NCBI GenBank assembly: GCA_007118145.1
Contig: SKSD01000010.1
Span: 69,896-133,895 of the forward strand
Direction: 5' to 3'
Origin: Halobacteriales archaeon
GTDB taxonomy: Archaea; Halobacteriota; Halobacteria; Halobacteriales; SKSH01
DNA: 64,000 nucleotides
Shown: one piece after another, positions 3,139 through 51,945 of the stretch
How the letters are laid out: each line of letters begins with the position of its first letter
Numbering within the stretch: position 1 is the first letter of the stretch
The notes under the pieces: model-generated
What the model saw: the letters and a program-made list of their open reading frames with translations, nothing else
What the model was told of the DNA's origin: nothing
Database searches by the model: none
Made by a program: the position numbers and the translations under genes

Positions 3139-3244
3139 AGGAATTCGGGCAAATCCGAGGGGGCAACTTGTTGCGTGCCACGGCATAACATGTCTCGATT
3201 CAGAGTAATTCTTATCACCTGACCGGGGCCTACCTCATGATATC

Positions 3245-3523
3245 ATGCACAAAGACGAGTTACTCGAACTCCACGAGATGATGGTGACGATCATGGAGCA
3301 CTTCAGAGACCGACCCGATATCGATCCCACCCTCTTCGACCAGTATGACGAACTCGATGTCAAACCGAGCGATGTGCATAAATCAAAGAGTGAGCACAAG
3401 CATGCGGTGTTTGTCCTTGGTAACTCACTGGCGAACGCGATGAGTGATGACGAGTTCTCAAGCGCAGGGCGCATCGGAAAGCGCATGGAGGAACTCGCAG
3501 AGGATACCGAGAAACGACTTTAA
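3245..3523 (+). CDS. small conserved archaeal protein (UPF0058-like)
   Basis: 92 aa acidic ORF starting MHKDELLELHEMMV, which resembles the UPF0058 family as I remember it. A T5 run follows the stop (3534-3538). Confidence 0.55.
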   Translation: MHKDELLELHEMMVTIMEHFRDRPDIDPTLFDQYDELDVKPSDVHKSKSEHKHAVFVLGNSLANAMSDDEFSSAGRIGKRMEELAEDTEKRL

Positions 3524-3565: not shown

Positions 3566-4453
3566 ATGGTTTCCGAACTCTTCGATGAGGAGGTCTGGTC
3601 GGTCGTCGACTGTGTTGAGTACGGCGATATCACCTATCATATCCACGAGGATGGTGAGACCGCCCGGATCGCTTTCGACCGCCCGGCTGTTCGAAACGCG
3701 TTTCGACCCGAGACGGTTGACGAACTCTATGACGCACTCGAGCATGCCAGACAACACGTCGATATCGGCTGCGTCCTGCTCACCGGTAACGGCCCCTCAC
3801 CGAAAGACGGTGGGTGGGCGTTCTCAGCCGGTGGTGACCAGGTGATCAGAGGTCGAGCTGGGTATGACTATCACCGTGATGAGGATCCATCAGCACCGAT
3901 CGGCCGCCTGCATATCCTCGAGGTCCAGCGATTGATCCGGTTCATGCCGAAACCTGTCATCGCGGTTGTCCCTGGGTGGGCTGTCGGTGGGGGTCATAGT
4001 CTGCACGTCACGTGTGACCTCACCATCGCCAGCGAAGAGCATGCCAGGTTCATGCAGACCGATCCCGATGTAGGTAGCTTCGATGGTGGATTCGGTTCAG
4101 CGTATCTCGCCAGGCAGGTCGGCCAGAAGAAGGCACGTGAGATATTCTTCATCGGCAAGGAGTACGATGCTCAATCTGCAGCCGACATGGGGATGGTCAA
4201 CGCCGTCGTCAAACATGATCACCTCGAGGAGATTGCTCTCGAGTGGGCACACGAGATCAACACGAAGAGTCCAACAGCCATCAAGATGCTCAAGTTCGCG
4301 TTCAATCTCGATAGCGACGGACTCATCGGCCAGCAGGTGTTCGCCGGCGAGGCGACGAGGCTGTTCTACATGACCGAGGAGGCACAAGAGGGGCGGGACG
4401 CATTCGTCGAGAACAGACGACCTCGGTTCGAGGAGTATCCCTGGCGCTACTGA
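3566..4453 (+). CDS. menB: 1,4-dihydroxy-2-naphthoyl-CoA synthase
   Basis: Crotonase fold with MenB-type motifs GGWAFSAGGDQ and VPGWAVGGGHSLHVTCDLTIAS. Sits in a men gene neighbourhood. Confidence 0.9.
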   Translation: MVSELFDEEVWSVVDCVEYGDITYHIHEDGETARIAFDRPAVRNAFRPETVDELYDALEHARQHVDIGCVLLTGNGPSPKDGGWAFSAGGDQVIRGRAGYDYHRDEDPSAPIGRLHILEVQRLIRFMPKPVIAVVPGWAVGGGHSLHVTCDLTIASEEHARFMQTDPDVGSFDGGFGSAYLARQVGQKKAREIFFIGKEYDAQSAADMGMVNAVVKHDHLEEIALEWAHEINTKSPTAIKMLKFAFNLDSDGLIGQQVFAGEATRLFYMTEEAQEGRDAFVENRRPRFEEYPWRY

Positions 4454-4644
4454 GCAATTCACGAAAGGCTTTTCACGCCAGCTCACACGAGCAATGCTAG
4501 AGGCCGATGGAGACCCGTATTTTCTGACCGGATCGGTCGCACCTCGATGAGTGTTGCCTGCATCAGTGCCGAGGGCTGTCGCTAGCGATCGATCATACCA
4601 GACAGAGATCGCCGAGTGAACACGCCGTTACCCACCACAACACC

Positions 4645-5928
4645 ATGCAACATTCAAATACAACGATGCAACAGAAGGATGCGCTCGTCGCCAAACGGCG
4701 CAGCGAATCACCAGTCGACACCGACGAGATCGTCGCATTGGCCACTGCTGCGGGATACACAGTGGCCGATACCGTGACCCAGGTCCGTCATGAGGATCCC
4801 GGACTGTACTTCGGTGCCGGGAAGGTAGATGCGATCGCGGCAATGGTCGGATCGAACGAGATATCGACCGTCATCGTCGACGGTGAACTCACCCCGGCAC
4901 AGCATCGAAACATCGCCGAACGATTGCCCGACGAGACCCGACTGATCGACCGTATCCGGCTCATTCTCGATATCTTCGCCGACCAGGCAACCGACACCCG
5001 TGCTAAGTTACAGGTCGAGCGGGAACAGCTTCGATACGAGCTATCGAGATATGAGGCGGCTCCAGATGAGGGTTGGTTCAACCGACGCACAGAGAAGGGC
5101 TCGCCCCGTTATGACCTACTCGACCGTATCGACCGCCTCAAACAAAAGCTCGAGGAGACACCACATCCCGGTGTGCGGATGCGACGCCAGCGTCGCGAGC
5201 AGGGGTTCGATCTCGTCACGATAGCCGGTTACACGAACGCCGGAAAGTCGACGTTGTTACATCGACTGGCTGACGATCTCGAGCTCTCCGCTCACGACGA
5301 CCATCATCAGGATACCTCGGCCACAGCTGCCATCGAGGATCGGCTCTTCAAGACGCTCGAGACGACCACACGTCGGGTCACCATCCGTGGTCGACCGGTA
5401 CTGTGTACCGACACCGTTGGGTATGTCGAAGCGCTCCCCCATCGTCTGATCGCATCATTCAGTGAGACACTCTCAGAGGCTGCCTCCGCAGATGTCGTGT
5501 TGTTGGTCACCGATGGGTCGGACGAACCCGACAGGTACCGTGATAAATTACAGGTCTCGATCGACGTGCTCGACGAACAGGGTGTCGACCGATCACGAGT
5601 CATCCCGGTCATCAACAAGATCGATCGCATCGATGAGCGAACGCTGCGAGAGCGCAAAGCACTCACCACCGGAGCGCTTTGCGAACCCGTGGCGATCAGT
5701 GCACGTGACGGTCGACACATCGATCGACTCCTCCAGCGTATCTACGAACACCTCCCGGTCGATCGCCGAGTCCTTGAGTTGCCGAATGAGGCAGCCGCGA
5801 TGTCACTCGTCTCTGAGGCATACGAGACCATGGATGTCAACGATGTCACCTATGAGGGTGATACGATACGCCTCGATGTCGAAGGTCGACCATCGGTCAT
5901 CGATACCTTCGAGGCACGCGTCCAGTAG
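4645..5928 (+). CDS. hflX: GTPase HflX
   Basis: G1 GYTNAGKST, G3 DTVGY, G4 NKID, with an HflX-type N-terminal domain. An alternative ATG exists at 4666. Confidence 0.85.
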   Translation: MQHSNTTMQQKDALVAKRRSESPVDTDEIVALATAAGYTVADTVTQVRHEDPGLYFGAGKVDAIAAMVGSNEISTVIVDGELTPAQHRNIAERLPDETRLIDRIRLILDIFADQATDTRAKLQVEREQLRYELSRYEAAPDEGWFNRRTEKGSPRYDLLDRIDRLKQKLEETPHPGVRMRRQRREQGFDLVTIAGYTNAGKSTLLHRLADDLELSAHDDHHQDTSATAAIEDRLFKTLETTTRRVTIRGRPVLCTDTVGYVEALPHRLIASFSETLSEAASADVVLLVTDGSDEPDRYRDKLQVSIDVLDEQGVDRSRVIPVINKIDRIDERTLRERKALTTGALCEPVAISARDGRHIDRLLQRIYEHLPVDRRVLELPNEAAAMSLVSEAYETMDVNDVTYEGDTIRLDVEGRPSVIDTFEARVQ

Positions 5929-27724: not shown

Positions 27725-28723
27725 TCAATCACCGGCTGGAGTGTGATGCATATACCATGTGCCATCGATCACCACCGCCGCAGTCCCACGGTTGTCGAGC
27801 AAGATCGGCGTTCGATGGGTACGTGCCAAGGTGTGTAACTCAGCATGTTCGTCGACGACGATACCGTGACGAATACTGATCGGTGTGCTGACCTCAACAT
27901 ATCGGGAGGGATGTCTCGTGTGTAACCACCGCATCCGATGTCTCGACCGAGCAGCAGATGACATGGGGAGGACACCGGTGAGACGTAGCCCGACCAGTCC
28001 GAGGAGGATACCGGTACCGAGGGCGACCGTGAGCACCCATGTCTGTGAGCCTGTCGACCCACCGGTCACCGCCTCATAGTGACGGATGCCATCGTGCTCG
28101 ACCACGATCACCTCCTCGTCGAACGCAATCGAAAGCTCTGCCGTGTGAACGTGTACCCGTGCATCGGTGACCTGAACCGACGCAAGAACGCTCACCTCGA
28201 GGGTGCCAGCCGTCGTCCCGTAGCGATCATCGAGGCGCTCTGCCAACCGTTCGATACGGTCGATATCGAGATGCACTGGTGAGGTGTGGACGTGAGTGTG
28301 TCCAGGTGCCGTGATAGAATCATTCACCAGCGGGGTTTCATACCGCCACAGCGTGGTACCGCCGTAGGTGCGCTCTACCTGTAGATCAACCATAAGCAAG
28401 ACACGATCTACGGTATCGAGTGTCCGGTCATACTCATAGGTGAACGTGGCAGGTATCGTCGACTGATACGCTCTGACGAACGCACCATCACCCCCGAGCG
28501 TCACAGTGCCATCATCACCGATCGTCTCAACCGTCATCGCCTGGGTGAGTTCGAATCCAACGCGTTCGATCACCACCTGTTCGTCGTCATGACCGTCGAT
28601 ATCAGCCAGGAACAGGGTCGAACCCCCGTAAAGCACGAGGCTGACACCGATGAACAAACAGAGGAGAAATCGGTTATCGACGAGGAGAAGCAACCCACTC
28701 GTGAGACCATCTAGACGTGTCAT
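27725..28723 (-). CDS. bitopic membrane protein (DUF5305-like), signal-peptidase operon member
   Basis: N-terminal TM (LLCLFIGVSLVLYGG), a long beta-rich ectodomain and a C-terminal TM (TWVLTVALGTGILLGLVGL). ATGA overlap with the upstream peptidase gene. Confidence 0.55.
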   Translation of the reverse strand: MTRLDGLTSGLLLLVDNRFLLCLFIGVSLVLYGGSTLFLADIDGHDDEQVVIERVGFELTQAMTVETIGDDGTVTLGGDGAFVRAYQSTIPATFTYEYDRTLDTVDRVLLMVDLQVERTYGGTTLWRYETPLVNDSITAPGHTHVHTSPVHLDIDRIERLAERLDDRYGTTAGTLEVSVLASVQVTDARVHVHTAELSIAFDEEVIVVEHDGIRHYEAVTGGSTGSQTWVLTVALGTGILLGLVGLRLTGVLPMSSAARSRHRMRWLHTRHPSRYVEVSTPISIRHGIVVDEHAELHTLARTHRTPILLDNRGTAAVVIDGTWYMHHTPAGD

Positions 28724-29768: not shown

Positions 29769-31157
29769 ATGAGTGAACTTGACCGCATTTCGTTCGGAAC
29801 AGACGGCTGGCGAGACCATCGATCGGCATTCACCGACACACGGGTTCGAGCGGTTGCATCAGCGTTTGCTGATCATCTCCACGAGCTTGATGTGGGGACT
29901 GACCGGGTTGCCATAGGGTATGATGCTCGACGTGATTCACCAGATATCGCACGGACGATCGCCGAGACGATCACTGCCTATGGATTCGATGTGTGGTTGG
30001 CATCACGTGACTGCCCCACCCCTGCCATCGCATCGGTGATCGATGAGTTCGATCTTGTCGGTGGTGTGATGGTCACCGCTTCGCACAACCCACCAGCATA
30101 TAACGGCATCAAACTGATCCCATATGGAGGTGCGCCTGCACTACCAGAGCTGACTGACGCCATCGAGGCAAACCTTGGGAGGGAGACCGAACCCGAGGGG
30201 TATCCCAGTGGTTCGACGACAAGCTTCGACTTCGTCGAACACCACGTCGAGACGGTGTTGAGCCGAGTCGACACCGCGTTGCACGATCTCACGGTCGCAT
30301 ATGATGCGATGTACGGGAGTGGCCGTGGCGTGACCGATACCGCGCTCGAACGGGCAGGTGCGAATGTCCGCCGGTTGCGGTGTGATCGAAAGGAGGACTT
30401 CGGTGGAGACGCACCGGAACCTGACGAACACCGTCTCAAGACATTGATCGAGGTGGTGACGAGCGGAGAGGCAGACCTCGGTATCGCTAATGATGGTGAT
30501 GCTGACCGCGTTGCGATCGTCACCCCCTCGGGGTTCGTCAATGCCCATCTACTGTTCGCACTGATGTATGAGGATTTACTCAAAGATGCGTCCGGTCCCG
30601 CCGTTCGCACCGTCTCGACGACGTTCCTGATCGATCGCATCGCGGAGGCACATCACGAGCAGGTCATCGAGACAGCCGTTGGGTTCAAATGGGTGGCTGC
30701 AGCAATGGCACAACACGACGCGCTCATCGGTGGTGAGGAGAGTGGTGGATTTACTGTCCGCGGCCATGTACGTGAAAAGGACGGCCCACTTGCTGCATTA
30801 CTCCTCGCTGATGCACACCATCGACGCTCGATCGATGAACGGGTAGACGATCTGTTGGATCAGTACGGTCAGATTTTCCAGGTCACAGAGAGTGTCGATT
30901 GCCCTGATGAGGAGAAAGCAACCGTGTTACACGACCTCAACGAGCAACAACCGACGCAACTCGCAGGGCGCTCGGTCGAGGCGATAAACGATACCGATGG
31001 TCTGAAATTCCTCCTCGAAGACGGGTCGTGGGTCTTGATCCGACCAAGCGGCACGGAACCGAAACTACGTGTATATGCCGAGGCAGCGAGCGAATCGTCT
31101 CTGAGGGCACTGATCGATGCAGCGACGAGTATCCTCGATAAAATCAGAGATAGTTGA
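29769..31157 (+). CDS. phosphoglucomutase/phosphomannomutase (alpha-D-phosphohexomutase)
   Basis: Active-site TASHNPPAYNGIK and metal loop ANDGDADR. Trimmed to the ATG at 29769. Confidence 0.85.
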   Translation: MSELDRISFGTDGWRDHRSAFTDTRVRAVASAFADHLHELDVGTDRVAIGYDARRDSPDIARTIAETITAYGFDVWLASRDCPTPAIASVIDEFDLVGGVMVTASHNPPAYNGIKLIPYGGAPALPELTDAIEANLGRETEPEGYPSGSTTSFDFVEHHVETVLSRVDTALHDLTVAYDAMYGSGRGVTDTALERAGANVRRLRCDRKEDFGGDAPEPDEHRLKTLIEVVTSGEADLGIANDGDADRVAIVTPSGFVNAHLLFALMYEDLLKDASGPAVRTVSTTFLIDRIAEAHHEQVIETAVGFKWVAAAMAQHDALIGGEESGGFTVRGHVREKDGPLAALLLADAHHRRSIDERVDDLLDQYGQIFQVTESVDCPDEEKATVLHDLNEQQPTQLAGRSVEAINDTDGLKFLLEDGSWVLIRPSGTEPKLRVYAEAASESSLRALIDAATSILDKIRDS

Positions 31158-31793: not shown

Positions 31794-32115
31794 TTACGGA
31801 ATTTCGAGAAGGAAAACCCGTACTTTGAGCGGGGATGCATCCGACGGCAGGGACGGTGACTACAGGGTTAGCTTGCCTGACGGTAGGTCGTGTCGTACGC
31901 ACATCCTGCGGATATTGGAGTTGGAGTGGGGTCTCCGTCAACAAAAGGCAACCCTGCGTAGGATGTTCTACTCGCCCAACGTGGGTGAGTCGGGTCGATG
32001 GCACGGCCTTGTGAGGTGAACGCGGATACCTCAGCACACCACGCCTCAAACGAGGCCCGACGGGCTTGCTGTCTTACGAAAGAATCCTCGACATTCAGGT
32101 CGGAGAGGATGTCAA
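31794..32115 (+). mobile_element. tnpB-less IS200/IS605 (IS1341-type) tail element with omega-RNA-like scaffold, copy 1
   Basis: About 320 nt, non-coding and co-linear with 40985-41368. Shared blocks are GGATGCATCCG, CAGGGACG, ATTGGAGTTGG, AACCCTGCGT, an identical 18-mer GGGTGAGTCGGGTCGATG, and TGTGAGGTGAACG. A long-range helix pairs 31848-31862 with 31952-31965. A terminal hairpin lies at 32089-32102, followed by GAGAGGATGTCAA. The decayed peptide PCEVNADTSAHHASNEARRACCLTKESSTFRSE resembles haloarchaeal TnpB C-termini as I remember them. Confidence 0.55.
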
Positions 32116-40343: not shown

Positions 40344-40564
40344 CGAATGGTTGATTGGTGTATGGTCGGCAGCGGGATAACAAATACACTACGATACGGT
40401 GAATCCGTCACACCTGGTCTTGATCTGATTGTACACCCTGCCACAAGTCCAAGGGTGGATCTTCAACTCCAAGGGATTTCGAATCACGATTGATTATGGG
40501 TATCACTTCTCACCCACTGGAAGCAACCGACCGGCTTTTACACGACTGAAACGAAGCTGTGAGT

Positions 40565-40957
40565 ATGCAACGAGAAATTCATGTGAGCCGCCGACAGATG
40601 CTCGGAGCAGTCAGCGGAACGCTCACCGTGGGATTGGCTGGATGTGTGGGTGATGATGACAACAACAATGACGTCGACAACCTCGTCTACGCAGGGACGG
40701 ATGACGCACCGTTCCAGTTCGTCCCCGATACGATTGAGGTGAGCGTCGGTGAGACGGTCAACTGGCGTTGGGGGACTGACACGCACAACATCGTTGTTGA
40801 ATCTCAACCAGATGGGGCTGACTGGCCAGGCCATCCAGAGATCCAAAACACCAACCACGAATACTCCTATACCTTCGAGGTCCCGGGGACGTACGAATAC
40901 GTCTGTGAACCACACCGAGGAGTGGACATGTACGGTACCGTCATCGTCTCTGACTAA
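40565..40957 (+). CDS. halocyanin (type I blue copper lipoprotein)
   Basis: Tat motif SRRQML, lipobox LAGC, and copper ligands in YVCEPHRGVDMYG (C-x2-H-x4-M). The ATG at 40565 is preferred to the GTG at 40559. Confidence 0.8.
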   Translation: MQREIHVSRRQMLGAVSGTLTVGLAGCVGDDDNNNDVDNLVYAGTDDAPFQFVPDTIEVSVGETVNWRWGTDTHNIVVESQPDGADWPGHPEIQNTNHEYSYTFEVPGTYEYVCEPHRGVDMYGTVIVSD

Positions 40958-40984: not shown

Positions 40985-41368
40985 TTACGGGATTTCAAGC
41001 GAAAAGCCCGTGCGCTAGTGGAGGATGCATCCGGCGACAGGGACGCTGATTCCAGGTGTACCATACCGGATAATATATCCTAACGTAAGGATATCGGGCG
41101 AAAATTGGAGTTGGGTAGGAGTTTCCCTCCACTTAAGCGAACCCTGCGTCGGATGGCTACTCGTCCAATGAGGGTGAGTCGGGTCGATGACAATGCCTGT
41201 GAGGTGAACGTGGACACCCAAACGCACCTCGTCTCAAATGAAGTCCGATACACGACTCACGAAACACAGCCAAATCCCCGTGGTCTGGTCGAGGTGCCTA
41301 AGGGAACGGAGATCGGGCTTTGCTGTTTCACAAAGGAATCTGCGCCCGGCAGGGCTTGAGGACATCAA
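40985..41368 (+). mobile_element. tnpB-less IS200/IS605 (IS1341-type) tail element with omega-RNA-like scaffold, copy 2
   Basis: Co-linear with 31794-32115 and begins with the same TTACGG. It has the same conserved blocks, including the identical 18-mer at 41172-41189. A long-range helix pairs 41028-41042 with 41142-41155. It carries an insertion of about 75 nt relative to copy 1, and a terminal hairpin at 41344-41355 followed by TTGAGGACATCAA. Stops occur in all frames. Confidence 0.55.
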
Positions 41369-41437
41369 TCACGTACACATCTCACCCACCGAACAGAGAT
41401 GGCCTTGGTATTTGCATTGAGGGAGCTATGTGCAATT

Positions 41438-41800
41438 GTGACGTCCCCCAACGGCTAAAGCCGTGAGATTTCCTCAGTTACTGTCAGCGATGCCGAGGTC
41501 AGTGTGCAGGTATGCTAGCTCAGAACTCTCGTCAGTACCGTTCGTTCACCGTCCGGAACAGTATCCATCGATTGGCGTGGTTTGACCTGTGTTGCCGGAC
41601 TCGAGGGCGACGTGTTTCATGTCTTGTTAGCGATACGCTACATGTGTGTCTTATCGAAGTGAACGTTTGCTGTGAATATCGTCCATGAACAGCAGTCTCG
41701 CCTGTATGTGCACTCGCGCGGTATGTGACCCCCGAAGGTATGTTCACTGCTGAGCCATGAGAATCACCTAGCCAATTTAGGATGTCGCCTCCGACGATGC
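41438..41800 (-). repeat. possible third, inverted and more decayed copy of the same tail element
   Basis: The right-end hairpin/tail at 41438-41477 is clear: minus strand GAGGAAATCTCACGGCTTTAGCCGTTGGGGGACGTCAC. Similarity further in is weak: GACATCCTAAATTGG versus CACATCCTGCGGATATTGG in copy 1, and a decayed peptide DILNWLGDSHGSAVNI. Confidence 0.35.
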
Positions 41801-41804
41801 TACT

Positions 41805-44504
41805 GTGGCGAATCAATCGAGTCTCTCACCGTCATCGATAGCCGATGTCGATGATTGGCATAGCATCCACTATGAGGAGCTATTGACCCGATTGGAGACC
41901 GATGAGGAGGGACTGAGTCGGTCTGAGGCAGCACATCGGTTGGAGACGTTCGGACCAAACGATATCGAGACAGAAGAGGGTACCTCGCTGTTTCGTATCT
42001 TCCTTGAACAGTATACCTCCGTCCTGATCTGGGTCCTCATAGTAGCTGCCATAGTTATGGCAGCGGTGGGTCACACGATCGATGCCGCGGTCATCGCAGG
42101 TATCGTCGTGTTCATCACCATCTTTGGCTTCCTTCAGGATTACCGTGCCGAGCAAAGTATCCAGGCACTCAAGGAGATGGCCACCACGCACGCGATCGTC
42201 CGCCGTGAGGGATCGAAGCTCGAGATAGATGCACAAAAGGTGGTCCCTGGTGACATCGTTTTCGTCGAATCAGGTGATATCGTTCCGGCAGATGCTCGCT
42301 TACTTGAGGTATCCAACCTCCGTGTCGATGAGGCGATCCTGACAGGAGAGAGTGTCGGGGTCACCAAGGACACCGAACCGGTCGAAACCGACATCTCAGT
42401 CGCTGATCGGACGTGTATGATGTATCGCGATACGACCGTCCTACGAGGCTCTGGTATCGGAATCGTCGTCAACACCGGGCAGCAGACCGAGGTCGGCCAG
42501 ATCGCAACGGCACTCGGCGAGGCAGAGGAGCGAGATACGCCGTTTCAGACGGAGATGGACCGACTCGGCAAGCTCATCGCTATCGGTGTCATCGCCATCG
42601 TGTCGGTCATCGCATTTACCGAGCTCATCATCGGTGACACCGAACCGCTGGATGTATTTCTCACCGCGGTAGGGGTCGCTGTATCGGCCGTTCCCGAGGG
42701 GCTCCCAGCAGTGGTCACCTTGTCACTGGCCCTCGGTGCGCGACGAATGGCCGAGCAGAACGCCCTCGTGCGGAGGTTGCCCATCGTCGAGGCACTCGGC
42801 TCGGTGAACGTCATCTGCACGGACAAGACCGGGACGTTAACCGAGGAGGAGATGACGGTTCAACAGATCGTCTCAGGAGAACAGCATATCGAGGTGACCG
42901 GGAGTGGGTACGATACCGAGGGTGAGTTCCTGGTCGATGGTGAGCCCATTGACATCGAACCACACATCGAGCTGTTCCGTTGTAGTATGTTGTGTAACAA
43001 CGTCGATATCGGAACTCGAGAGGACGCTGAGGGTGAAGATATCGCTTATTTAGGCGACCCCACCGAGATCGCACTTTTCGTCAGTGCTGAGAAGGCAGGG
43101 ATCGACCACGACCGGGTTGATCAGGAGTTCCCACGCACAGGAGAGGTCGAGTTCACCTCAGCTCGAAAACGCATGACGACGGTCCATGAGCATCCAGAGG
43201 GTGGTCACGTTGCATACATGAAGGGTGCACCGGAGGCAGTCCTTGAGCGGTCCTCACACGAGCTGATCGGTGGTGAGATCATCGAGCTCACAGACGACCG
43301 TCGTGCTGAGTTAACACAGACGGTCGAGAGTCTCGCGGAGGATGCCCTCAGGGTCATGGGATTCGCGTATCGACCAGATGCACCTGCTGATGCATCTGAG
43401 GATATCGAGGATGAGATGGTGTTTCTTGGGTTACAGGGTATGCTCGACCCGCCACGACCTGAGGTTCCAGATGCCATCGAGGGATGTCTGAACGCTGGTA
43501 TTCGCGTGATCATGATCACCGGTGATAACGCCATCACGGCGAAGGCTATCTCGAAGGAAATCGGTCTCGACGCTTCCTCCGTTGTGACGGGGAAGGAGAT
43601 CGATGCCATGTCGAGCGATGAACTCAGCGAACGCGTCGAGGATGTCACCATCTTTGCACGCACCTCACCAGAACACAAATCGACGATCCTCCGCCGATTA
43701 CAAGATAACGGCCACGTCGTCGCGATGACAGGCGACGGCGTGAACGATGCACCGGCGGTGAAGAACGCCGATGTCGGTGTGGCGATGGGTATCCGTGGGA
43801 CCGATGTGACTGAACAGGCATCGGATATCATCCTCCTCGATGATAACTTTGCAACCATCCGTGATGCGGTGAGAGGTGGCAGACGGATCTTCGACAACGT
43901 TCGTAAATTCGTCAATTACCTGCTCTCTGGGAATGGTGGCGAGGTGACGATGATCTTCACTGGGTCGATGGTGGGGTTCGGGCTGGTAATCACACCGATT
44001 CAGATCCTGTGGATCAACGTGGTGACCGATGGTATCCCAGCGCTATCCATGGGGGTAGACCCAGCTGCTGACGATATCATGGATCGCCCACCACGACCGC
44101 GTGATGAGGGGGTCATCACGCGACGGATCGTCACGTCGATCATCGGTATCGCCCTGTTTATGACAGCGTGTCTCTTGCCAGTGTTCTACATCCATCGTGA
44201 CGACATCGTCCTCGCCCAGACGATGATCTTCACCGGGTTCGTCCTCATGGAGATCGTCCGCATTCAGGCGATCAGGTATCGTTACGGACTCGGTCTCTTC
44301 TCGAATCGATGGCTCGTCATCGCCGTCGCGGTGGCGTTCATCTTGCAACTATTGGTCCTATACACCCCCATCGGGCAGACCTTGTTCAGCGTCGAACCAT
44401 TGACGCTCACACACTGGGGTCAGTTACTCATCGCCGCAGGCGCCTTCGTCGTGCTGATGGCCATCTTCGTCAAGGTACAAGACCGATACTTCGAGCGCTA
44501 CTGA
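41805..44504 (+). CDS. cation-transporting P-type ATPase (type II, Ca2+/Mg2+-like)
   Basis: Phosphorylation site [24 protein letters not shown]. 899 aa with GTG start, and no in-frame ATG near the conserved N-terminal region. Confidence 0.9.
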
Positions 44505-49215: not shown

Positions 49216-49917
49216 TCATTCGGGGATCGACTCGACGATCTCGATGCCTGATGACGTCCCGATCCGGGTCGCACCGGCATCAACCATCTCGAGCGCCTCC
49301 TCAAAGGTTGCGATACCTCCAGATGCCTTGATACCGATCCCCTCACCGACTGCCTCTCTGATCAGTCGGATTTCCCGTGGGGATGTCGGGCCGTCATATC
49401 CGACCGCTGTCTTGACGAAATCAGCACCTGCCTCCTCAACCAATCTAGCGGCAGTTGCTATCTCATCATCTCCTAAGGCTGGGGATTCGATGATACACTT
49501 CACGACTGTCTCCGGTGCTGCCTCCTTCACTCGGCGGATATCGTCGACGACGTACTCGTGATCACCGTTGCGAAAAGCAGTCCGATTCATCACCATATCA
49601 ATCTCGTCAACAGCATCGAGAACGGCCTGTGTTTCTACCACTTTGGCCCGTGTCGTTTGCACACCGTACGGAAAACCGATCACCGTGCCCAGGCGTACCT
49701 GGTCATCGAGAAGTTCTCTGGCCAAGTTGACATGATATGGCACGACGACAACTGAGAAGAATCCATACGAATTGGCGGACGAACAAAGCCTCGAGATGTT
49801 CTCCCTGCTGGATACGGGATCGACGTTCGTCTGGTCCAGGATAGACACGATCTGGGCAGGAGATTCACTGAGTTCGGTGAGCAATGACATACTGAATGGT
49901 GCAGGTGCAACACCCAT
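49216..49917 (-). CDS. deoC: deoxyribose-phosphate aldolase
   Basis: Schiff-base Lys region FVKTAVGY and IKASGGI. The start is ambiguous (GTG 49938, ATG 49917, ATG 49890). Confidence 0.8.
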   Translation of the reverse strand: MGVAPAPFSMSLLTELSESPAQIVSILDQTNVDPVSSRENISRLCSSANSYGFFSVVVVPYHVNLARELLDDQVRLGTVIGFPYGVQTTRAKVVETQAVLDAVDEIDMVMNRTAFRNGDHEYVVDDIRRVKEAAPETVVKCIIESPALGDDEIATAARLVEEAGADFVKTAVGYDGPTSPREIRLIREAVGEGIGIKASGGIATFEEALEMVDAGATRIGTSSGIEIVESIPE

Positions 49918-51728: not shown

Positions 51729-51945
51729 GTTGACATCCTCCCCGCGCTGAAGCGCGAGGCTTTCGCCTCGTTTTCCTCGTAAACGTTTCGATTGGAAAGT
51801 AGTTTTCACCATCCAAGCCAACTCCAGACACCACGATTGTGTACAGTTGAGCAGCGGCTCGTCTCACATAATCAGGGTTGGTCAAGCTGGCGACTACGTG
51901 ATGACCATCATCCTCCGACGTGGGACTCGTCTGCCCAACCACTCT
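51729..51945 (-). pseudogene. 3-prime fragment of an IS1341-type tnpB gene with its right end
   Basis: The minus-strand peptide NPDYVRRAAAQLYTIVVSGVGLDGENYFPIETFTRKTRRKPRASARGG recalls a decayed D-x-D-x-NAA-x-NI ... G-x-G ... P-V-E-T tail. It ends with the hairpin CGCGC-TTCA-GCGCG followed by GGGAGGATGTCAAC at 51729. It also shares GGAGTTGG with the long copies. Confidence 0.45.

Follow-up and report, generated by a model that had tools for sequence, protein, structure and literature searches.

An intergenic element at positions 40985-41368 of a 64,000-nt stretch of DNA (hereafter the window) from a Halobacteriales archaeon (assembly GCA_007118145.1, contig SKSD01000010.1) is very probably a degenerate, non-autonomous member of the IS200/IS605 family (IS1341-type), a haloarchaeal palindrome-associated transposable element (PATE) with both transposon ends and an omega-RNA gene but no tnpB, and likely an inactive relic. 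A first-pass annotation, made from the sequence of the window, had noticed it as the second of two copies, and we keep that numbering: copy 2 for this element and copy 1 for its relative at 31794-32115. We established the boundaries of copy 2, its membership in a family, the homology of that family to tnpB-linked omega-RNA, a fold backed by covariation, and the recent mobility of other family members. The assignment as a PATE of the IS200/IS605 family carrying an omega-RNA follows from the TTAC/TCAA boundaries, the homology to the 3' end of tnpB, and the covariation-supported fold. The locus is a real feature, but a member of a class already known.

The 384 nt of the locus, on the forward strand, run from TTAC through a terminal TCAA, an exact match to the limits given by the first-pass annotation, and the element proper is the 380 nt directly 3' of TTAC. 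Its neighbours are a halocyanin gene (40559-40957, Pfam Copper-bind) on the left and a gene for a P-type cation ATPase (41805-44504) on the right. Its flanks read ...GTTG TTAC on the left and TCACGT on the right, with no target-site duplication. At 380 nt it is, like PATEs, too short to encode a transposase, and a tblastn search of the 64-kb window using the TnpB of a Halosimplex element described below (L015) as query found no tnpB.

Scanning for the core motif of the family (GAGTCGGGNCGATRRCANNNCCNGT) retrieved 24 stretches from reference genomes and 31 from metagenomes (designated here by L numbers), and no match in viral contigs. Five of the metagenome matches (L032, L033, L039, L041, and L044) were chance occurrences in unrelated sequence. 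About 47 matches are elements without tnpB, from at least 15 haloarchaeal genera and hypersaline metagenomes. Family members extend from TTAC to ...GGAGGATGTCAA between unrelated flanks, and a subfamily that has no left end closes in TCAT. All 16 full-length copies, taken from genomes and plasmids, start right after TTAC and end in ...GGAGGATGTCAA; the 15 that were measured are 368-403 nt long, and copy 1 is 318 nt long. IS608 of Helicobacter pylori has the same tetranucleotides, TTAC as left target and TCAA as right cleavage tetranucleotide, in a similar spacing, with the foot of its hairpin about 18 nt past TTAC and TCAA ending 10 nt after the right-end hairpin; unlike the family, it bears tnpA and tnpB, and the two have no sequence similarity. 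Among plasmids, blastn detected relatives of full length in Natrinema zhouii, N. thermotolerans, and Halomontanus rarus and partial ones in Haladaptatus, Natribaculum, Natronosalvus, and Natrononativus, all in unannotated gaps with differing neighbours. The element also occurs in the complete genomes CP147841 and CP100756.

The family has been mobile recently. The copies in N. thermotolerans strains A29 and DSM 11552 are 99.7% identical and occupy different loci, as do two copies on a J07HQX50 scaffold that are 99.3% identical, and in both pairs homology ends exactly at TTAC and TCAA, with unrelated flanks beyond. Strain A29 has TTAC directly before the right flank of the DSM 11552 copy, the element being absent, and a deletion of about 1.27 kb distinguishes the left side of this site. 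The left flank of the DSM 11552 copy (L030 ~4350-4587 compared with L063 1-1504) matches A29 DNA located 1.27 kb from the right flank, and a deletion or rearrangement abuts the left end. Insertion at TTAC without duplication, subterminal palindromes without terminal inverted repeats, and mobility are all features of PATEs that we found in the family. The hairpins of the left and right ends, 8-9 bp long, are related to one another and co-vary between subfamilies (..GCGCGGGG vs ..GTCGTGGG). The two window copies, at 74-77% identity, are too diverged to count as one element at different loci.

No empty site was found for copy 2. Its joined flanks (...CAGTTGTTAC followed by TCACGTACAC...) had no match in the plasmid collection, and a search by way of the 132-aa halocyanin open reading frame (ORF) of the window gave none either. 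The locus of an identical 130-aa halocyanin (P0001) was not located, and a 65% identical halocyanin was found only in a non-syntenic context. Both assemblies that share the copy 2 locus (L066 and L067) carry the element.

The unrelated contexts in which family copies lie already largely refute a role for copy 2 as a cis regulator of a neighbour, either in the 3' untranslated region or terminator of the halocyanin gene or as a 5' leader or riboswitch of the ATPase gene, and we consider such a role very unlikely. The locus and the halocyanin gene do share a strand, with 27 nt from the stop codon to the locus and 436 nt from the locus to the ATPase start, and in about 5 of the 8 copies inspected a co-oriented gene ends 27-100 nt upstream. 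The neighbouring genes nevertheless vary among copies, the flanks of near-identical copies are unrelated, Rfam gave no riboswitch or leader match, and the TTAC/TCAA boundaries are those of a transposon.

Several members show further rearrangements. Secondary insertions lie exactly in the left- or right-end palindromes (L003/L010 ~4380-4436, L005 ~3170-3305, L011 352-650, and L019 1-4305); the inserts in L011 and L019, with ends GTGGGTAAGAGACA.../...TGTCTCTTACCCA, recall the palindrome-targeting SMR-A elements reported in Haloquadratum. J07HQX50-type copies (L008 ~5041-5447 (-), L031 848-1254 (-), and L056) carry the heptamer GTTGAGT in three to four tandem units within helix H4, next to the invariant core. 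At L050 2018-2767, tnpB fragments (aa 54-87 and 360-434 of the L015-type TnpB) lie no more than about 40 nt beyond a full family member, an arrangement that looks like a nested cluster of IS1341 relics.

The link to TnpB comes from the two core-motif matches that bear tnpB, L015 from Halosimplex carlsbadense and L058 from a metagenome contig, whose TnpB proteins are 83.6% identical. The ORF of L015 matches the Pfam families OrfB_IS605 (1.1e-25) and Cas12f1-like_TNB (5.9e-13). The core lies inside this tnpB about 130 nt before its stop codon and encodes ELGVGSMARPV, immediately C-terminal to the HAD motif of RuvC-III; a right end (GGAATCCCACGGCTTCAGCCGTGGGAGGATGTCAA) lies downstream of the gene and a family-like left end upstream. 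The left end of copy 2 aligns with all left ends of the family and resembles that of the L015 element. The tnpB-linked sequences of L015 and L058, compared from the core through to the right end, are 59-65% identical to the family and keep 6/6 pairs of helix H5, 5/5 of H6, and 7-8/8 of H7. An independent internal-deletion derivative of an L015-type insertion sequence, L009, retains the first ~45 nt and the last ~150 nt of tnpB and shows how such elements arise. The homology to the tnpB 3' end and right end and the covariation-supported structure are both marks of an omega-RNA; the overlap with tnpB typical of TnpB omega-RNAs was not found, since no tnpB adjoins any of the ~47 family loci. Candidate tnpB ORFs upstream of members without a left end (L006, L024, L028, L029, L020, and L005) all proved not to be TnpB, the one at L006:1418-2734 being a rhodanese/metallo-beta-lactamase protein.

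The first-pass view of copy 2 as a tnpB-less IS1341-type derivative with an omega-RNA-like scaffold is thus borne out by its TTAC/TCAA ends, the presence of the core in the L015 tnpB, the retention of H5-H7, covariation, and the lack of a conserved ORF. A suggestion to map the deletion junction relative to the RuvC and zinc-finger codons of intact IS1341-type elements could be followed in part: the junction lies 5' of the codons located after the RuvC-III HAD motif and was placed no more finely because no close tnpB-bearing parent was found, with a tentative resemblance that extends as far as the second zinc-finger CxxC.

We predicted a consensus structure from the RNA portions of 36 family members, leaving copy 2 out, and tested this structure on an alignment (A5) of 37 sequences, with 85 base pairs. 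Paired cells amounted to 89.5%, compared with 81.3% in shuffled alignments, and none of 500 shuffles reached the observed value. Cells with changes on both sides numbered 229 against 75 in shuffles, and the covariation score was 0.25 against 0.126 in shuffles and 0.05-0.08 in slid controls, in which about 42% of cells paired. Changes on both sides occur in 33 of the 85 pairs, and most compensatory changes fall in H4, H6, H7, H8, H10, and H11; the stem of H6, for example, appears as GUGAG/CUCAC, GUGCG/CGCAC, GUGUG/CACAC, GUAGG/CCUAC, and GUGGG/CCCAC. The first-pass annotation had concluded from the terminal hairpin that structure is conserved and sequence is not, and because of these compensatory changes the statement holds for the family well beyond that hairpin. 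In the terminal hairpin itself, position and pairing are kept while the stem sequence changes, with 5 of 10 pairs showing changes on both sides in the family; copy 2 has the hairpin GCCC/GGGC and then a tail ending in ...GAGGACATCAA, as had been described.

Copy 2 can form all 14 pairs of a long-range helix proposed between 41028-41042 and 41142-41155, but the family does not back this helix. Three substitutions specific to copy 2 produce the complementarity, and among 16 family members 65.9% of cells are paired compared with 64.4% in shuffles, with no convincing covariation. Positions 41142-41150 are instead predicted to pair with 41287-41297 (H3), and the 14-bp complementarity seen only in copy 2 may be due to chance.

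We give almost no credence to the conserved blocks being a small protein-coding gene, which the first-pass annotation had also thought unlikely. Copy 2 does contain an 84-aa ORF with a TTG start (41105-41359), and several members have open stretches of 90-128 aa on the forward strand, but no ORF is conserved: strand, extent, and frame differ between members, as do the strand and extent of the longest open stretch. Stops occur in all three forward frames of copy 2, as had been noted, and in every forward frame of most members, and in the tnpB frame a TGA immediately precedes the core. Indels of 1-2 nt in hairpin loops shift the frame, and the substitutions are compensatory at the RNA level.

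The two window copies are homologous copies of one element, as the first-pass annotation had recognised. By blastn, the first 264 nt of copy 2 align with the first 267 nt of copy 1 at 73.9% identity over 268 columns, and the last 55-56 nt form a separate 3' block of about 70% identity; a MAFFT alignment gave 77%. The identical 18-mer reported for both was found again, and the divergence, estimated by eye at one third, measured about one quarter. What had been described as an insertion of about 75 nt in copy 2 is a segment of 65 nt that is present in every other aligned family member, and we therefore attribute the difference to a deletion in copy 1. The related idea that a variable module was inserted at this position is not supported. 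The hairpin inside the segment does differ in length and sequence among subfamilies; the segment as a whole is ancestral, and its loss from copy 1 removes 4 of the 11 helices (H3, H6, H9, and H10). Copy 1 forms only 46 of the 85 consensus pairs.

Copy 2 forms 68 of the 85 consensus pairs, the lowest number in the main subgroup (others 73-84), and its 17 broken pairs include 2 of the 6 in H5, beside the core. Its own subterminal palindromes have eroded. As DNA, the left-end hairpin region no longer forms a hairpin (-0.5 kcal/mol, z = +1.3), compared with 8 bp at -4.8 to -8.8 kcal/mol in intact members, and the right-end hairpin is reduced to 4 bp (-4.0 kcal/mol, z = -0.16), compared with 9 bp at -6.0 to -8.5 kcal/mol. 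The terminal motif, TGAGGACATCAA, has three changes from ...GGAGGATGTCAA. Copies 1 and 2 no longer have what mobility requires, nor much of the RNA fold, and are most likely inactive relics.

Comparison of strains adds to this picture. One assembly (L067) is identical to the window, and a related assembly (L066, 98.4% identical over 6.4 kb) has copy 2 at the same site. Over the whole element, L066 differs from the window at 12 of 384 nt (3.1 per 100 nt), close to the rate in other intergenic DNA (35/884 nt, 4.0 per 100 nt; p=0.52) and three times that in coding DNA (50/4707 nt, 1.06 per 100 nt; p=0.002). We read the pattern as ongoing decay, with a slight chance of constraint on the RNA part. 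The first-pass annotation had taken the divergence between the two copies as a sign of retention; the degraded hairpins, the position of copy 2 as the most eroded member of its subgroup, and its divergence at an intergenic rather than a coding rate between strains argue otherwise.

In keeping with that earlier view, copy 2 could be a functional, retained, stand-alone omega-RNA gene that provides the guide for a TnpB, or for a nuclease-dead TnpB relative, encoded elsewhere, a reading that we judge unlikely. It has in its favour the 18-mer shared by both copies, the large share of consensus pairs that copy 2 can form, the low divergence of its RNA part between strains, the persistence of copy 2 at the same site in L066, and clear structural selection on the family as a whole. 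Against it, copy 2 is the most eroded member of its subgroup, the hairpin next to the guide has only 4 bp and its loop has changed from TTCA to GGCA, the terminal motif has diverged, the TATA-like stretch is altered in copy 2, the window has no tnpB, and copy 1 has lost four helices.

Some of the same evidence, together with gaps in the ancestry of the family, weighs against our interpretation of copy 2 as a tnpB-derived relic. In copy 2, 80% of the consensus pairs can form and the core is intact, and its RNA part differs between strains at only 4 of 273 nt (1.5 per 100 nt), borderline lower than intergenic DNA (p=0.053), which may reflect some residual constraint; at all four of these positions it is the window copy that departs from the family consensus. 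We found no tnpB-bearing element of closely similar sequence, and the nearest (L015/L058) matches the RNA over its 3' two thirds alone, with about 60-65% identity. The 5' domain (41096-41150) is specific to the family, highly conserved (UUGGAGUUGGAUUGGGGUCUCC...CAAAAAGCAACCCUG), and not evident in the tnpB-linked relative. Finally, the tnpB search covered the 64-kb window, and a TnpB or TnpA encoded elsewhere in the source genome could act in trans.

By analogy with the IS608 paradigm, a Y1 TnpA acting in trans would excise and insert intact members as single-stranded DNA, through recognition of their subterminal hairpins, of TTAC as target, and of the terminal TCAA. The A+T-rich spacer of copy 2 may, judging from its sequence, hold an internal promoter of archaeal type for the RNA; TTTTAT- or TATAAG-like strings occur in the family at the aligned position, which is about 25-45 nt upstream of the start of homology in the subfamilies without a left end. 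Such a promoter would drive an RNA of about 275 nt, whose scaffold would end at the right end and which would read on into the 3' flank as guide; an RNA of about 290 nt would begin near the UUGGAGUUGG motif and run 16-20 nt past TCAA. Guided by this RNA, a TnpB encoded elsewhere would cleave the donor site left by excision, TTAC plus flank, and thereby restore the element, by analogy with Meers et al. 2023. The TTAC 5' of the element would then double as the transposon-adjacent motif of the TnpB guided by the RNA, and the guide target of copy 2 would read TTAC+TCACGTACAC... Transcription, TnpB binding, and guided cleavage would follow from an omega-RNA role by the same analogy, with which the geometry of TTAC and flank is consistent.

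The first-pass annotation had proposed looking for matches to the 20 nt after 41368 preceded by a TTAC-like motif. A scan of the window found a single match, at 28278-28295(-), of 18 nt with two mismatches and located in an ORF; 0.08 such matches are expected by chance. It is preceded by ACAC rather than TTAC, and we therefore treated it as chance. The flank of copy 1 matched only itself.

PATEs were described in 2011 as transposase-free derivatives of IS605/IS1341 elements in Haloquadratum, whose palindromes lie near the termini and which carry a targeting oligonucleotide on the 5' side and a conserved one at the 3' terminus (PMC3119063). Those of the HqIRS71 type keep a disrupted C-terminal segment of tnpB, and terminal-only versions of 52 bp are known (PMC3119063). 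The family shares with PATEs the lack of terminal inverted repeats and target duplication, palindromes at both ends, the 5' targeting and conserved 3' terminal oligonucleotides, a length too short for a transposase, heterogeneous diverged copies, a terminal-only form of 52-53 bp (here at 51730-51782), and secondary insertions in the palindromes of some members. The family, whose members are about 385 nt long, differs in its spread over many genera at low copy number, without expansion in one genome.

A PATE-derived noncoding RNA of Halobacterium salinarum, VNG_R0052, is transcribed, and it was reported in 2015 along with the sotRNAs and a UUCA tetraloop shared with HgcC (PMC4615843); sotRNAs were later equated with omega-RNAs (PMC12558985). 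These RNAs (sot0042 RF02656, RF02657, and HgcC RF00062) resemble ours in their right-end position, tnpB 3' homology, UUCA-loop hairpin followed by GGAGGAUGUCAA, and multi-helix scaffold, and differ in that the family has no tnpB in cis, has its own 5' domain, and scores below the Rfam gathering thresholds. Rfam gave no match anywhere in the window at gathering thresholds, and in E-value mode (E up to 10) copy 2 matched neither HgcC nor sot0042, its sole match being at chance level and on the opposite strand. Copy 1 scored 20.1 bits for HgcC, and an intact member, L001, scored 31.5 bits for HgcC (E=1.5e-5; gathering 50) and 21 bits for sot0042 (E=0.002; gathering 88), matches that are below threshold and correctly placed. 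In 2023 Meers et al. observed that PATEs "often encode omega-RNAs", which depend on a TnpB supplied in trans (PMC10055086). The PATE-like elements of Geobacillus stearothermophilus are likewise gene-less, with conserved left and right ends and a proposed dependence on TnpA and TnpB in trans (PMC10055086), but they are bacterial and unrelated in sequence.

The features of copy 2 and its relatives in the window are listed in the table below. The 53-nt mini-PATE matches the right end of the family by nhmmer and HgcC weakly, at 29.6 bits. About 50 nt upstream of it, on the same strand, is a TGGAGTTGGCTTGG motif like the 5' domain of the family. A possible second mini relic lies just 3' of copy 2 at ~41425-41476 (-), reading TAAC TGAGGAAATCTC ACGGC TTTA GCCGT TGGGGGACGTCACAA, with 6 differences in ~35 nt from the sister strain. 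The first-pass annotation had counted its ACGGC/GCCGT hairpin (41451-41464) among the family copies, a membership that we could not confirm. Elsewhere in the window, sub-threshold Rfam matches to archaeal C/D-box families occur at 30035-30084 (+) (sR44, 28.2 bits, E=0.0025) and 49419-49473 (-) (sR32, 23.2 bits, E=0.018).

Table. Coordinates of copy 2, its parts, and related elements in the window.
Feature	Position	Strand	Description
TTAC	40985..40988	+	Target tetranucleotide 5' of the element; directly precedes 16/16 full-length copies, whose upstream flanks are unrelated
Left end	40989..41060	+	18-nt leader, degraded subterminal hairpin (~41007-41024), and conserved segment GGATG.ATCCG.C..CAGGGACG
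A+T-rich spacer	41061..41095	+	CATACCGGATAATATATCC...
Omega-RNA-like scaffold	41096..41368	+	Predicted helices H1-H11, from the consensus structure of 36 family members without copy 2
H4	41159-41166/41172-41179	+	Predicted helix
H5	41181-41186/41193-41198	+	Predicted helix
H6	41199-41203/41256-41260	+	Predicted helix
H7	41204-41213/41245-41253	+	Predicted helix
H10	41298-41312/41318-41335	+	Predicted helix
H11	41339-41348/41351-41359	+	Predicted helix
18-mer GGGTGAGTCGGGTCGATG	41172..41189	+	Identical in copy 1 at 31983-32000; in the near-invariant family core GAGTCGGGNCGATRRCA...CC.GT
65-nt segment	41249..41313	+	No counterpart in copy 1; limits from blastn; spans the H6 3' strand and part of the H7 3' strand, the variable hairpin region, and the H10 5' strand
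Right-end subterminal hairpin remnant	41344..41355	+	GCCC GGCA GGGC, 4 bp; loop GGCA where the family has TTCA
TCAA	41365..41368	+	Right-end terminal tetranucleotide and element end; copy 2 reads TGAGGACATCAA
3' flank TCACGTACACATCTCACCCA	41369..41388	+	Would be the guide portion if the RNA read through, by analogy with the homing model (PMC10055086)
Copy 1	31794..32115	+	Same family; 318 nt after TTAC; internal 65-nt deletion
Mini-PATE	51730..51782	-	Terminal-only, 53 nt; TTAC, left-end-type leader (GAGGAAAACGAGGCGAAAGCC), hairpin TCGCGC TTCA GCGCGG, exact GGAGGATGTCAA

For the window, the finding has little importance beyond accounting for unannotated intergenic DNA 3' of the halocyanin gene. 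The family is an omega-RNA-carrying PATE, widespread and conserved in structure, that is not in Rfam and is unnamed in the PATE literature examined, ISfinder and HaloLex lying outside this comparison, and it is a candidate for annotation resources. Its interest is modest and for specialists, and lies in its wide spread, strong covariation, conserved 5' domain, and numbers, with about 47 tnpB-less to 2 tnpB-bearing elements among the core-motif matches. The almost invariant 5' domain might provide a promoter of its own, its own processing, or a role independent of TnpB. Intact members may be free-living guide-RNA genes, consisting of omega-RNA only, that borrow the TnpB and TnpA of other IS1341-type elements, and copy 2 may still supply such an RNA, a proposal that we hold as tentative and improbable. 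Whether guide RNAs can spread on their own as selfish elements, with TnpB borrowed in trans, could be addressed with intact members such as those of Natrinema zhouii YPL30, Halobellus salinus JCM 14359, and Salinirubellus litoreus SYNS196.

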